Origin: Chthoniobacteraceae bacterium
Lineage (GTDB): Bacteria > Verrucomicrobiota > Verrucomicrobiia > Chthoniobacterales > Chthoniobacteraceae
Assembly (NCBI GenBank): GCA_031409655.1
Contig: JANNXQ010000078.1
Coordinates: 44,525-108,524 of the forward strand
Reading direction: 5' to 3'
DNA: 64,000 bases
This document shows positions 7,861-15,019 of this stretch, one piece after another. The notes under the pieces are model-generated. The model was not told where the DNA came from, ran no database searches, and saw only the letters and a program-made list of their open reading frames with translations. A program made the position numbers and the translations under genes. Position 1 is the first letter of the stretch; every line of letters begins with the position of its first letter.

Positions 7861-9651
7861 TTACAGCGCTCCTTTGCGGGCTTGTTCGATGAGGTAGTCG
7901 CCGGTGCGCCAGGCGAGCGCCATGATGGTGAGCGTCGGGTTCTTATCGGCGTTGGAAGGGAAAGGAGAGCCATCGCAGAGGAAGAGATTCCTCACGTCCC
8001 ACGTCTGGTTCCATTGGTTGCACACCGATTTCTTCGCGTCGTCACCCATGATCGCGCCGCCGACTTCGTGGATGATCTTCCCGCCAGTCTCAATATAGGA
8101 GAGCGGATCGTCGGACTTCGGAGTGCGCACCGTGCCACCCATGGCTTGGATGAGTTCCGAAAAAGTCCGGCGCGCGTGAGCCGCCTGCTTTAGCTCGTGC
8201 TCGCTCCATTTCCAGTGCCAGCGCAGCACCGGCACGCCCCACTTGTCTTTCACCGTCGGATCGAGCTCACAGAAAGAGCCTTCATTTGGGATCATCTCGC
8301 CGCGACACGCGTAACCGACAAACGAGCCGTAGTAACGGCGCGCCTCTTCCTTAAACTTCGACCCATAACTCCCGAGCGTCAGATCATCCGGCACCGGATT
8401 GCCACCCATCGGCATATTCCGCGAGCCACCCATCTCGATGTGATACCCACGCGGGAAATCCGTCTTACCCGCGGCCTGCTCCTGGTAAAGCCACCACGGC
8501 GAGTAGAAGTGCGATCCGCCAGCGCCGTCCTCGTTGTGCGGCGGACAATTTTCCAGCATCGGGATATGCCCGTTCACGCCGGTGCCGACCGTGTCCATGA
8601 TGTACTTGCCGACGAGCCCACTCGAATTCGCGACCCCTTTGCCGCCATTCGAGTTCAGCAGGATACGCACGGTCTAGCCGCTGCTCGCCGCCACTACCAC
8701 CGCCTTCGCTTTGACGCGCTGCTCACTGCCATTGGTCTTGTCGATGAAGAGCACCCCGGTCGCCTTGCCGTCCGCACCCATCAGGATTTCGCGGGCGTGG
8801 GCATTGGGGATGATGTCGAGATTCTCCGTCGCCAATGCAGGCGGAAGGTGCACCGTCGTCGATTGGTAGTTCGCGCGAATCGAGCACCCGCGCCCACAAT
8901 CCGTGGCCCAGAAACACGCCGCCCGCGCGCGCATGGCTTCCGCGACGATCTTTTGAGCCCGTTCATTTCCGGGATGCAGCTTCTGCGGGATGTTCTCCCA
9001 ATCGAGCGCCTTGGTCAGCACGGCGCGATGGATCGGCATGAAAGGAATGCCAAGCTTCTTGCCATACTTTTGCGAGAGCAACTCGGCGACGCGACCCTTC
9101 GGCGGCGGGAGTAACACACCGTCTGGCGAGTCGGGCGTGTTTTCCATCCCGGAGTTCGTGCCATAGACACCGATGAGCATCTCGACCTTCGTGTAGTAAG
9201 GATCGACGTCCTCGTAACTCACTGGCCAATCGAAACCCAGCCCATCGCGAGTGCGCGGTTTGAAGTCGTAAGGTCCATTGCGTAGCGAGATGCGGCCCCA
9301 GTGATTCGTGCGCCCGCCGAGCATGCGCGTCCGCCGCCACATGAACTGCTCCTCCTCTTTCTCCGAAGCCTGCGTGTAAGGCTCGCCCGGCACCTCCCAC
9401 CCGCCATCGATCGTCGCATCGTAGAAGCCAAAATTTTTCTCCGGCGTCTTCTCGCCGCGCAGCGGTGCCTGATCCCCGCGCTGAAACATCGGCGTCTCCG
9501 TCAGCGGATCGTAGTTCCGCCCCGCCTCCAGCATCACGCACTTCAGTCCCGCGAGCGTGAGCGTGTAAGCCATCTGCCCGCCGCCCGCACCGGAACCGAT
9601 GATGGCAACGTCGTATTCAGTTTTTGCCTGGGAAGCGGAGATGATGGGCAT
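7861..9651 (-). pseudogene. GMC-family FAD oxidoreductase interrupted by an in-frame TAG at 8674-8676
   Basis: ORFs 8674-9651 (IIGSGAGGG, LGGRTNHWGR) and 7861-8670 (IHEVGGA, NPTLTIMALA) are in one frame and read VVAASSG*TVRILLNS. Confidence 0.85.
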
Positions 9652-11361: not shown

Positions 11362-12309
11362 ATGGCGACGACCAAACAACTCGCAGAACTTTTCCGCGCC
11401 GTCGCAGGGCACGACATGCCTCGTGCCGTGGAATCTGCGCGGCGCATCGCCCAGATCGAAGCGGACAAGGGCAATCACAGCGCTGCGCGCGACCTGCTCG
11501 GCTCGCTCAACGGCTACGCCACGCCGGGGCATGCCGGTCATTCACATCCCATCGCGCAGAGCCTGACCGCGCAGCAGTGCGTGTCCTTTCTCCCCCACTC
11601 CGCGACGCTCGACGCGCTTGAACTCCCCGCCGCACTCCGCGCGGAAATCTTGGAGCTTTCCGCCGAGTGGAGGCACCGCGCCGAGCTACGGGCGCAGGGC
11701 ATCCCACGCCGCTGGCGGCTGCTTTTCCACGGCCCGCCTGGCTGCGGGAAAAGCGCCACCGCCGCCGCGCTCGGCCAGCTCGTTGGCCTCCCCGTGTATC
11801 TTGTGCGCTTCGATGCACTCATCGGCGCGTATCTCGGCCAGACTGCACTGCGCCTCCGGGAAGTCTTCCGCTTCGCCACCGAAAATCCGTGCGTGCTGCT
11901 CTTCGATGAAGTGGATGCGCTGGCGAAACGTCGCGGCACACCAATGGAAGTCGGCGAGATCGACCGCGTGGTCATCGCCTTCATGCAGGAACTCGAACAC
12001 GCCTCGCCCGAAGGCTTCATCATCGCCACCTGCAACCTCCCGCACTCGCTCGACGACGCCCTCTGGCGCCGCTTCGACCTCCCCGTAATTTTCCCCAAAC
12101 CCACCGCCAAACAGCTCACCACCTTCGCCCGCAAACGCTGCAAGCAACTCGGTTTCGCGCCATCGAAAAAACTCCCGCTGCTCGCCGCCAAAGCGGGCAA
12201 CTACGCCCGCGCCGAACAACTCATCGCCGACGAAGCGAGGCGGCGCGCGCTGGCGAAACTAACAGGACGCAGCGCCAGAACTCACCTTTTGCAAAGTCAC
12301 AATGCCTGA
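11362..12309 (+). CDS. AAA+ ATPase of the type usually paired with S8 peptidases (IetA-like)
   Basis: Walker A HGPPGCGKS; Walker B LLFDEVD; SRH ATCNLPHSLDDALWRRFD; helical N-terminus MATTKQLAELFRA. Confidence 0.9.
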   Translation: MATTKQLAELFRAVAGHDMPRAVESARRIAQIEADKGNHSAARDLLGSLNGYATPGHAGHSHPIAQSLTAQQCVSFLPHSATLDALELPAALRAEILELSAEWRHRAELRAQGIPRRWRLLFHGPPGCGKSATAAALGQLVGLPVYLVRFDALIGAYLGQTALRLREVFRFATENPCVLLFDEVDALAKRRGTPMEVGEIDRVVIAFMQELEHASPEGFIIATCNLPHSLDDALWRRFDLPVIFPKPTAKQLTTFARKRCKQLGFAPSKKLPLLAAKAGNYARAEQLIADEARRRALAKLTGRSARTHLLQSHNA

Positions 12310-13207
12310 AATTCCGAAACCAACTGCGAGCGAAATTGCTTCCGCCATTCCAGAAGTCACTGATGCGACCGTGGTCAAGTCGGGTGGCTTCAAGGTCGTG
12401 TATCGCGCGACCATCAATGGCCGGACGGAAGCTTTGAAGCTGGTGCATATTCCATCGTTTGCGGGAATTGATGACCCGAAGCCGTTTCAAGACGAGTGTT
12501 TGGCGCGAGTGCGGCGCGAAGTGCAGACGCTCGCCGACTGCCAAGATCCGAATGTCGTGAAGCTCGGCTCCATCGCTCCGCGACAAGTGGCAATGCTCGG
12601 TGAATCGCTCATCGCGTACTCGGAGGAATTCCTGCCGGGTAAAGACCTCCGCGCACACATCAAGGATGGATGGCGGCCCGGTGAGCCCGAACTCCGCACC
12701 CTTTTCCTCACGCTGATCACCGCCATTAAATCACTCTGGGAATTACCCAATCGCGTCGTCCACCGCGACATCAAGCCGGACAACATCATCCGGCTGGACG
12801 ACGACGCCCGCCCGTTCGTGCTTCTCGACCTTGGCATCGCCTACGCCGTATTCGATACCGCGCTGACGGTGAATCCAGAGCAGCGGTTGCCAGTCGGGAC
12901 GTTCCCGTATCTGGCGCCGGAAATGTTCCAGCCAAACTTTCGCGACACGATTGATTACCGCAGTGACCTCTACGCCGCGGCGCTCACGGTCTATGAGTGC
13001 GCGACCGGGCGGCATCCGCTCGCGAGGGAAGGCGAATACCTCGTGAAAACGCTGACGCGCATCCTGCAAGACACGCCGCCTCCGCTCCGCAGCGCGCGGG
13101 CCGACTTGTCGCCGGTGCTCTGCGAGATGGTGGATGGGATGTTGAAAAAACGCCCGGCACTGCGCCCGGCGAACCTTCCATCGCTCATCAACAAGCTCCA
13201 ATCCTGA
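12302..13207 (+). CDS. Stand-alone Hanks-type Ser/Thr protein kinase
   Basis: SGGFKVVY, ALK, HRDIKPDN, DLGIA, GTFPYLAPE, RSDLY; no transmembrane or sensor domain; 8-nt overlap with the ATPase. Confidence 0.93.
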   Translation: MPEIPKPTASEIASAIPEVTDATVVKSGGFKVVYRATINGRTEALKLVHIPSFAGIDDPKPFQDECLARVRREVQTLADCQDPNVVKLGSIAPRQVAMLGESLIAYSEEFLPGKDLRAHIKDGWRPGEPELRTLFLTLITAIKSLWELPNRVVHRDIKPDNIIRLDDDARPFVLLDLGIAYAVFDTALTVNPEQRLPVGTFPYLAPEMFQPNFRDTIDYRSDLYAAALTVYECATGRHPLAREGEYLVKTLTRILQDTPPPLRSARADLSPVLCEMVDGMLKKRPALRPANLPSLINKLQS

Positions 13208-13209
13208 CC

Positions 13210-14400
13210 ATGAAACTCTACGCACAGCACGGATTTGGCGATGGGGACAAGGTCGCTACGGGATTGGAGAGGGGCTTGATTGACGGGGCCATCCTCGGTG
13301 CCAAAGACCTGCCGGCGGAAAAACTATCCGCCAAGCTCGGCGACCTGCGCGCGGCATCGGCGGGTGCGACGCTGGTTTTCGACCCGCAGTTTTACGTGAG
13401 CCTTCTCCGCAACAACGGTGCGCTCCGCCTCGGCGCACTGGAAAGCTACGATTACTTCCGCAGTTGGCGGCGCAGTCAGCTTGAGTCGTCCGAACGGGTC
13501 GCCGAAGTGCTGGACAGTGCGCTCGAATTTCAAGCGGCAGTTCCACAACTGGACGCGCTTATCGCACCGAACATTCTCATCTCCCGTTCATTCGATTCCG
13601 CCGAGGCGGTGATTGCGAAGAACTTCATCCGGGCGACAGCGAACCGGCACCGACAGACGGGAGACGCGCGGCCTGTTTTCGCGACGCTGGCTGTGTCGCG
13701 CGAGGCGCTGCTTCACACGGATGAATTCGAGAGTTTCCTTGCCGACATCACGCTGCTTGATGAGCCGCCAAACGGTTTTTACCTCCTCATTGGCGCATCC
13801 AGCAGCGAAGCGCGCGGCGAGATTCTCCACGCTGATGTCATCGCCGCGTGGATGCTGCTCAACCGCTCGTTGAAGCTGAACGGCTTTGAAGTCATCAATG
13901 GCTACTCGGATTTGCTGACACCCTTCCTTGCCGCTGTCGGGGCCGATGCCGGTGCTACGGGATGGTTCAACACACTCCGCGTATTTTCGCTGGAGCGTTT
14001 CGGCCCCGCCGCCGGGATGGCGCGGCAGCCGCTGCCGCGCTACCTGTCCGCGCGACTCCTAAATCGCCTGACTTTCGTCGAACTCAACGCGATGCGGGCG
14101 ATGTTCCCAAAGATGCTGAATCGCCTGCCCACCGACGCTAGCTTTCCCAGCGACGATGAACCGGAACGAATTGCCGAGGCGTTTCAGGCATGGGAGGCAT
14201 TACGAACGATGAGCGCAGCAATGTCCGGCGGCGACATCTCCGCCAATCTGGCGGCGTGCGAACTAGCCGTGGCGGAGGCGCGAAATGCCTACGGCACTAT
14301 TGCCGCCGCTGGCTTCCGACTCGGGCCGAAATCCGGAGGCGACCACATCGCCGAAATCCACGAGGGACTTACCGCCTTCCGCGAGTCCGCAGAACTTTGA
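13210..14400 (+). CDS. Hypothetical cytoplasmic alpha/beta protein (396 aa)
   Basis: ATG 2 nt after the kinase stop (MKLYAQHGFGDGDK); globular composition; FDPQFY and ATGWFNTLRVFS motifs. Confidence 0.8.
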   Translation: MKLYAQHGFGDGDKVATGLERGLIDGAILGAKDLPAEKLSAKLGDLRAASAGATLVFDPQFYVSLLRNNGALRLGALESYDYFRSWRRSQLESSERVAEVLDSALEFQAAVPQLDALIAPNILISRSFDSAEAVIAKNFIRATANRHRQTGDARPVFATLAVSREALLHTDEFESFLADITLLDEPPNGFYLLIGASSSEARGEILHADVIAAWMLLNRSLKLNGFEVINGYSDLLTPFLAAVGADAGATGWFNTLRVFSLERFGPAAGMARQPLPRYLSARLLNRLTFVELNAMRAMFPKMLNRLPTDASFPSDDEPERIAEAFQAWEALRTMSAAMSGGDISANLAACELAVAEARNAYGTIAAAGFRLGPKSGGDHIAEIHEGLTAFRESAEL

Positions 14401-15019
14401 CACTCCGCATCAGCGTCTCCACCGCCCGCGCACGGGCACGCGGGCTGAGTGGCTTGGCGGGGCGCGGTGAGTAGTGGCGGACGATGCGGGCGGTGTCGGC
14501 GTCGAATGACCAGAGGCCGACTTTCAGATGGCGAAAGAGGTCGAGCTTTTCCATCGCGAGTCTCGCGGCCGACTTCGGCAGAACGACGTAGGCAGCGTTT
14601 GCGAACCAGCGGTAGCGGCACGCCTGGCTGAGCGCCTTGCGCCAGTCGGTGAGCTTCATCTCGAAGGCGAGCAGCGACTCGTCGCGGATGAATGTCTCGT
14701 TGCGAAGCTCGACTGCGCGGCCTTCATCGCGGCTGCCCGCATTCGTCCAGACGAACCACACAAAATCCGCGACACCGAAACCGGCGACCGCCAGCTCGCG
14801 CGCGGGCATGGACGAGCGCGGGCGGCCCGCTTGCATCCGCTCCGCGAGATAGGCGCGGCTAAACGCGAGGACGAACCCCGATTCGCCCCGCTTGCGGCTC
14901 ACATTGGCCGGTAAATTTTTGCGGGTGTTTGTCGCGATGGAAATCGGCGGATGGTCGGTGGCGCAACGCACGCTGCGTCTGTAACCGCCAGGATTCGCGA
15001 CCGCAAGTGGCGCACTCAT
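14369..15019 (-). CDS. Putative PD-(D/E)xK-fold nuclease (MmcB/Sce7726-like)
   Basis: RELAVAGFGVADFV...AFEMKLTDWRKALSQACRYRWFANAAYVVLP...VGLW; exact start uncertain. Confidence 0.7.
   Translation of the reverse strand: MSAPLAVANPGGYRRSVRCATDHPPISIATNTRKNLPANVSRKRGESGFVLAFSRAYLAERMQAGRPRSSMPARELAVAGFGVADFVWFVWTNAGSRDEGRAVELRNETFIRDESLLAFEMKLTDWRKALSQACRYRWFANAAYVVLPKSAARLAMEKLDLFRHLKVGLWSFDADTARIVRHYSPRPAKPLSPRARARAVETLMRSVKVLRTRGRR

Follow-up and report, generated by a model that had tools for sequence, protein, structure and literature searches.

A Ser/Thr kinase, a TGT-fold barrel protein and a convergent nuclease form a candidate three-gene defence module in a Chthoniobacteraceae bacterium and other prokaryotes

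Organization of the locus

The window analysed here is a stretch of 64,000 nucleotides (nt) from a Chthoniobacteraceae bacterium (contig JANNXQ010000078.1 of assembly GCA_031409655.1), and it contains four adjacent genes that a first-pass annotation had put forward as an undescribed four-gene anti-phage system. The conserved unit comprises three of these genes, not four. They encode a Hanks-type Ser/Thr kinase (core gene 1; 12302-13207, plus strand, 301 amino acids (aa), identified by PF00069 and invariant motifs), a (beta/alpha)8 barrel protein of no named family that is predicted to have a TGT fold (core gene 2; 13210-14400, plus strand, 396 aa), and a protein with a weak likeness to sce7726 and P4 cII that is assigned a PD-(D/E)xK nuclease fold by motifs and modelling (core gene 3; 14369-15019, minus strand, 216 aa). 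Upstream lies an accessory gene for an IetA-like AAA+ ATPase (11362-12309, plus strand, 315 aa), with Walker A at residue 124 and Walker B at 179-185.

All four open reading frames (ORFs) were present in the sequence with the spacings previously claimed, namely an 8-nt overlap between ATPase and kinase genes, in which the ATPase tail overlaps the kinase start, a 2-nt gap between kinase and barrel genes, and a 32-nt convergent 3' overlap between barrel and nuclease genes. The long flanking ORFs were on the minus strand, also as reported, and the calls of an AAA+ ATPase (PF00004, 9.6e-26) and of a kinase (PF00069 Pkinase, 5.1e-23, above the cut-off and with no extra domain) were reproduced. For the barrel gene the ORF finder also offers a longer GTG frame (467 aa, from 12997), but 57 homologues all keep the Met at 13210. 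GC content at third codon positions was 0.72 for the kinase and 0.70 for the barrel gene, somewhat below that of most flanking genes (0.72-0.89). Neither a sigma-70-like promoter nor telling repeats were found at the borders of the locus, and the same-genus contigs, which break or are rearranged, provided no clean empty site; in one same-genus genome (G302) other genes come after the orthologue of the gene on the right flank. Matching contigs reach into each of the four genes, but among the pieces listed none spans the ATPase-kinase junction, so that this junction is without independent confirmation.

Co-occurrence of the three core genes

The main set consisted of 74 barrel loci obtained by a scan of GTDB genomes, and broader searches added 19 further distinct loci for a total of 93, leaving out the window, five repeats (L095, L238, L234, L237 and L239) and one of three plasmid matches. 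Barrel homologues numbered 447 in the 90% clustering set, and 531 matches, many of them partial, were obtained among the 50% representatives. In all 74 main loci and in 18 of the 19 further loci the barrel gene had the kinase gene immediately before it (92/93 overall, one fused), and kinase stop and barrel start were separated by -4 to +4 nt in every pair measured (73/73, the window included). The convergent nuclease gene was detected by tblastn in 71 of the 74 main loci and by profile in a 72nd (L071), which leaves one locus at a contig end (L056) and one truncated relic (L073). Wherever both ORFs were called, barrel and nuclease genes shared a 3' overlap of 4-86 nt (71/71 loci, the window included). 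The nuclease gene adjoined in 16 of the 19 further loci, or 88/93 overall, the exceptions being a fragment (L082) and two contig ends (L096 and L245). Five of these 16 loci were convergent, ten had the order nuclease, kinase, barrel, and one the order kinase, barrel, nuclease. At L100:511-2520 kinase and barrel are naturally fused into a 669-aa ORF, with a convergent nuclease after it. The three-gene arrangement is far beyond chance, which is not so for the ATPase.

Hosts included Verrucomicrobiota, Planctomycetota, Desulfobacterota-type groups, Ignavibacteria, Nitrospirota and Bacillota, as well as one haloarchaeal plasmid. The spread was patchy (2/40 relatives and 0/3 in the genus; 4/300, 5/300 and 8/250 in other genome sets). 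The order nuclease-kinase-barrel was seen in the plasmid copies, one haloarchaeal (L247, CP095393.1) and one from Bacillus mycoides (L246, NZ_CP128131.1) with recombinase and integrase genes alongside. A full triad was located on a viral contig (L086:5093-7900), flanked by genes labelled from their translations as integrase, repressor-like and metallopeptidase-like, and likely represents a prophage cargo site; phage genomes gave 0 matches among 50,697 records. Decayed copies comprised a truncated kinase and barrel (L073:4737-5392), a barrel fragment (L082:1284-1649) and a locus with both kinase and barrel frameshifted (L059:7152-9159). A separate 630-aa protein (P0193) has an N-terminus that by eye resembles a restriction specificity subunit and ends in the 240 C-terminal residues of the barrel. 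It is probably a deletion product inside a type I restriction-modification (RM) locus.

The barrel protein

The window barrel had no match in Pfam, NCBIfam or PADLOC and nothing credible in PHROGs, and the 117 barrel members gave nothing consistent in Pfam or NCBIfam, with 0/117 matching the Pfam TGT family. Searches of PDB sequences with two barrel profiles returned noise only, a search of the ESM Atlas returned unnamed clusters only, and a viral fold search returned weak TIM and queuine-transferase rows. An AlphaFold2 model built from 126 sequences (predicted local distance difference test (pLDDT) 97.1, predicted template modelling score 0.95) had an eight-stranded barrel followed by C-terminal helices. 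The model was compared with 48,161 representative chains, and the top four matches were all of the TGT family: archaeal TGT (1iq8; Z 20.7, root-mean-square deviation (rmsd) 3.4, 296 aligned), bacterial TGT (3unt; Z 18.4), DpdA (7ui4; Z 16.2) and QTRT2 (Z 15.4). The first match outside this family was pyruvate kinase (Z 14.5), followed by Cap10 (9ntn; Z 14.0). In a second fold search the matches listed were all TGTs, and a search with Foldseek by itself did not discriminate between TIM barrels.

Residue D58, at the end of strand 3, was invariant (126/126) and was followed four residues on by Y62 (105/126). This is the same D+4 aromatic spacing as in DpdA, where Asp95 is the general acid and Phe99 the base-stacking residue (PMC10164549). 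The nucleophile follows strand 8 in both DpdA (Asp256; PMC10164549) and Cap10 (D248; doi:10.1101/2025.04.06.647259). In the barrel alignment, with the register inferred from strand order, an Asp was present in 0 of 126 rows across columns 248-253, the presumed nucleophile region, and column 249 held Ala in 98 rows, Cys in 11, Gly in 10, Ser in 5 and Thr in 2. The CxCxxC zinc motif was likewise found in 0/126 rows, and D234, conserved in 114/126, could be a substitute acid. With barrel and TGT residues mapped by strand order rather than by superposition, the barrel appears to keep a base-pocket-like Asp58/Tyr62 pair without the nucleophile Asp.

The genome that carries the window also contains a second match to the TGT family PF01702, in a 695-aa open frame with an additional domain (L076, G000:C89:12763-13812). 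Long second TGT copies of this kind occur in many relatives.

The kinase and its predicted complex with the barrel

Kinase residues K46, E73, H154-R155-D156, N161 and D176, which cover the catalytic Lys, the helix-C Glu and the HRD-x4-N and DxG motifs, were invariant in 59 sequences. The kinase matched the PADLOC PD-T4-6 models at 3e-36; many kinase models match alike, and this match is therefore generic. A predicted complex of kinase and barrel scored 0.76, against 0.01 for the best of three controls. For calibration, 116 of 157 solved pairs and 2 of 215 mismatched ones attain the mark, figures that carry over only roughly to our own alignments. At least 94% of contacts agreed between runs and the pLDDT of each partner was at least 91. 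The predicted interface involves kinase residues 216-220, 258, 279 and 282-294; in it the end of the kinase C-lobe (282-291) meets barrel helices 174-182 and 219-225 and the barrel C-terminus. Interface columns were more conserved than the rest of each protein (kinase 0.73 vs 0.55; barrel 0.64 vs 0.57). The modelling supports binding of the kinase to the barrel protein.

The nuclease

The window nuclease had no match in Pfam, NCBIfam or PADLOC and nothing credible in PHROGs. The first-pass call of a nuclease was sustained by the residues invariant in 54 sequences (E46, G82, D85, E120, K122, Q132 and Y136) together with the modelled fold (pLDDT 84.5, with a single C-terminal helix at 193-214). 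Restriction-type nucleases dominated the list of fold matches, which included the MmcB-like 3dnx (Z 11.6, rmsd 3.7, 136 aligned), PaqCI (Z 10.3) and further PD-(D/E)xK proteins. The protein is thus predicted to have a PD-(D/E)xK fold with a D...ExK triad formed by D85, E120 and K122. A weak match to NF033832 (sce7726) was obtained for 11 of the 54 nucleases (best 3.6e-5) and none for the window's own protein, and comparison of the nuclease profile with P4 cII was also weak (E 4.4e-4, probability 34%; E 0.012 with a 7-row profile). The nucleases of L070, L071, L072, L086 and L100 are longer (231-258 aa), and in that of L070 the catalytic Asp and the ExK motif are separated by an insertion, some 60 residues long, which by eye is helix-turn-helix-like.

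The ATPase

Presence of the ATPase was tested in the 74 main loci, and it was found in one of them (L050, 34% identity). Residues 2-298 of the window ATPase matched PADLOC IetA at 1.8e-58, the NCBIfam IetA score was below the equivalog cut-off (171 vs 510 bits), and the Walker motifs were intact. A total of 85 loci with relatives of the ATPase were collected (80 metagenomic, four from related genomes, and L050). Downstream ORFs were called for 65 of the relatives, 63 of these ORFs belonged to one family, and all four that were tested matched IetS. Triad genes were found in none of the 84 loci other than L050, though many of these were short contigs. In a quick tree the window ATPase nested among ietAS ATPases, as sister to that of the ietAS locus L133 (68%) and far from the L050 ATPase. 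An ietS gene was absent from the genome (94.9% complete; four IetS queries), the one match being 71 residues at E 0.003 on another contig. The ATPase tail extends 21 residues past position 294, against a mode of 6; this is within the range of relatives and is therefore no proof of a broken end. The ATPase is most likely an ietA orphan of a separate IetAS system that now abuts the triad and is dispensable to it.

The four-gene proposal therefore came apart at this gene. The part that described an undescribed candidate defence module was upheld for the kinase, the 396-aa protein and the nuclease, and in the neighbourhoods of the 396-aa protein the kinase and the nuclease recurred, with RM genes alongside in many loci, and the ATPase did not. 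The role of core sensor or regulator that had been assigned to the ATPase found no support, as it is present in 1/74 loci and belongs to IetAS. PADLOC models, a full-system match to which would have spoken against novelty, were matched by the ATPase (IetA) and the kinase (PD-T4-6); the barrel and the nuclease matched none of them.

Another IetA-like gene that has no ietS beside it lies upstream of the triad at L050:711-6611, with a DruE-like helicase gene downstream. The ATPase-peptidase pairs of loci L133-L191 make up a large clade. Their peptidases, of about 790 aa, match PADLOC IetS weakly (E 1e-14 to 1e-37 in three tested), and the pairs are a putative divergent IetAS branch.

Genomic neighbourhood

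Type I RM genes were present within about 8 kb of the triad in 24/74 loci and Eco57I-methylase/SNF2-helicase genes near it in 10/74. One or other of these sets was found in 33/74 loci, compared with 10/617 13-kb windows of the organism's own genome, this single genome serving as background and each neighbour-cluster label being based on a scan of one or two of its members. The triad lay between hsdM/S and hsdR in 12 loci. This is the slot used by prrC. Other neighbours, from 100 proteins scanned, included BrxL, DUF499, ApeA-HEPN, AbiTii, TOTE-primase, Fic and integrases. The triad may often back up type I restriction, and a defence role of some kind is very likely.

Among the flanking genes of the window, an oxidoreductase-like gene (7861-9651, minus strand) is split into two ORFs of 325 aa and 269 aa. 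The same-genus genome G301 has a single 596-aa ORF in its place (L219:1443-3233), and the split may be a recent break or an assembly error.

Proposed function and alternative explanations

The most likely reading, with about an even chance, is that the triad is an abortive-infection or toxin-antitoxin-like module in which the kinase is guarded by a pseudo-TGT partner and the nuclease is a second arm. Kinase and TGT-fold protein would be co-translated and form the predicted stable complex, with the TGT-fold protein probably acting as a non-catalytic guanine- or nucleotide-binding guard that restrains the kinase. A phage product, or a change of ligand at the barrel pocket, would free or activate the kinase, which would then phosphorylate host targets and halt the infected cell; the nuclease would serve either as a DNA-cutting effector or as an effector controlled by the kinase. 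What the sequences and models establish is the co-occurrence of the genes, their folds, motifs and neighbourhood; the complex is a prediction, and toxicity, trigger and direction of control are inferred.

Several observations weigh against this interpretation. The predicted interface is away from the kinase catalytic motifs, so that a plain block of the active site is not indicated and a sensor or scaffold would fit equally well. The partner of the barrel never changes, whereas the effectors of the TIM-B systems compared below are swapped, and this constancy points to a chain of signalling more than to a toxin and its antitoxin. No link in sequence was found from the barrel to β, sce7725 or TGT: the profile comparisons were empty, as was the control comparison of β with TGT, and they are for that reason uninformative on remote kinship. 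Instead of a defence island, the window's own copy has catabolic genes around it; the RM background is drawn from a single genome, and related loci among the 74 do not count as independent. IetA-like ATPase genes of different clades lie upstream of the triad in the window and in L050. With two such independent occurrences, there is a small chance that the ATPase has an accessory role.

The next most likely alternative, though a rather unlikely one, is a sensor cascade in which the pseudo-TGT reads a modified guanine (e.g. 7-deazaguanine in phage DNA) or a nucleobase or nucleotide signal and turns on its bound kinase, which then licenses the nuclease as true effector. It is favoured by the invariant D58 and the Y62 at DpdA-like spacing (105/126), by the absence of Asp from columns 248-253, by a kinase without a sensor domain, by the association of the three genes in three gene orders, and by the precedent of Cap10, a TGT fold that reads a base on its partner (doi:10.1101/2025.04.06.647259). 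The residue mapping is by strand order only, the ligand is purely hypothetical, and convergent transcription in most loci would be an odd design for one cascade. The specific proposal that a retired TGT has become the ligand-binding subunit of a Ser/Thr kinase, reading a modified guanine or nucleobase signal of infection and relaying it by phosphorylation to the nuclease, is doubtful; if true, immunity would include a kinase cascade that senses nucleobases, and this could be how hosts respond to phages whose DNA is disguised by 7-deazaguanines.

The patchy spread, the plasmid and prophage copies, the relics (L073 and L082) and the hotspot inside type I RM operons would also suit a selfish addiction module that stabilizes RM loci and mobile DNA without protecting the cell from phages. 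This is improbable, given the BrxL, DUF499, ApeA-HEPN, AbiTii and TOTE-primase genes among the neighbours and the anti-phage activity of the architecture-mate gop-β-cII (PMC9122126). Equally improbable is a Dpd-like RM scheme regulated by the kinase, in which the barrel would be a working transglycosylase that labels self DNA or a protein partner and the nuclease would cut DNA left unmarked: the TGT/DpdA fold, the possibility that D234 (114/126) serves as second acid and the nucleobase transfer predicted in the TIM-B preprint (doi:10.64898/2026.10.19.760177) speak for it, and the lack of an Asp at the presumed nucleophile column and of a zinc motif in 126 rows, together with the lack of a recurring Que or Dpd family in the neighbour clusters (100 proteins scanned, not all), against it. 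Least probable of all is a true four-gene system with the IetA-like ATPase as working sensor or regulator. The intact Walker motifs, the 8-nt overlap with the kinase gene and the second, unrelated IetA-like gene upstream of the triad in L050 would fit such a system, but the ATPase is absent from 73/74 loci, triad genes occur in 0/84 other ATPase-relative loci (many of them short contigs), and the sister at L133 (68%) is followed by IetS. As a conserved unit the four-gene system was rejected on the 74 triad loci and the ATPase-relative loci.

Comparison with known systems

Stk2 and PD-T4-6 are single-kinase defences. The triad shares a Hanks kinase with Stk2 and PD-T4-6 and is unlike them in that its kinase has obligate barrel and nuclease partners. 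IetAS, reportedly from the work of Gao et al. 2020, resembles the locus in the IetA match of the window ATPase, and differs from it in that the next gene is a kinase and no IetS S8 peptidase is adjacent. In the clusters of sce7726, sce7725 and a third gene (NF033832/NF033831) the nuclease stands beside an uncharacterized partner, an arrangement that the triad resembles tentatively through the weak NF033832 matches of 11 of 54 nucleases. Of the barrels, 0/117 match NF033831 and there is no profile match, and the third gene of those clusters, labelled RES, is by its translated start not a kinase.

With TGT, DpdA and Cap10 the barrel has the fold in common at 5-11% identity, and no QueC or DpdB/C partner was seen beside the triad. 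DpdA and Cap10 keep the nucleophile Asp, which the triad barrel seems to lack. Cap10, whose TGT fold has been reshaped for the reading of a base on its partner (doi:10.1101/2025.04.06.647259), is like the barrel in having no zinc site and in binding a partner enzyme, as is predicted for the barrel. No description of a kinase/TGT-fold/nuclease triad was found in the literature, including the accessible text of PMC12839542 and PMC9503650, although a version with a kinase might be contained in Figure 6B or the supplementary material of the TIM-B preprint. The triad is a widespread unnamed three-gene module whose barrel and nuclease escape current PADLOC models.

The closest resemblance is to the TIM-B systems, in which an effector gene is followed by TIM-B and by a convergent, overlapping restriction endonuclease gene, with P4 gop-β-cII as prototype; the preprint unites PF14350 with the TGT fold, proposes TIM-B as a negative regulator and predicts nucleobase transfer for the family (doi:10.64898/2026.10.19.760177). 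Gop-β-cII protects against lambda and P1, Gop being toxic without β (PMC9122126), and is set off by a phage protein (doi:10.1101/2023.04.06.535777). The triad likewise has a putative effector, a co-directional TGT-like barrel with C-terminal helices, and a convergent overlapping nuclease; the likeness of this layout to gop-β-cII and TIM-B and the TGT fold of the 396-aa protein were missed in the first-pass annotation. The endonuclease of TIM-B systems has a C-terminal HeH domain, and the model of the triad nuclease shows one C-terminal helix (193-214). Unlike TIM-B, the triad barrel is not PF14350 (0/117 members at E 0.1), and among the same 301 genomes seven match PF14350, six others match the triad barrel and none match both. 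The partner of the triad barrel is always a Ser/Thr kinase, and the accessible preprint text names no kinase effector; the barrel appears to lack an Asp at the presumed nucleophile site, and two further gene orders, in distant members, and a fusion occur. The triad probably works like gop-β-cII and is not filed as a TIM-B member, because the barrel fails the PF14350 and sce7725 tests and the effector list is without a kinase. A kinase partner brings standard assays to the gop-β-cII layout; with these and copies in cultured Bacillota (L071 and L246), the action of the barrel on its effector is directly testable. With the barrel, which is a new TGT-fold family, the gop-β-cII layout comes to have three TGT-like branches.

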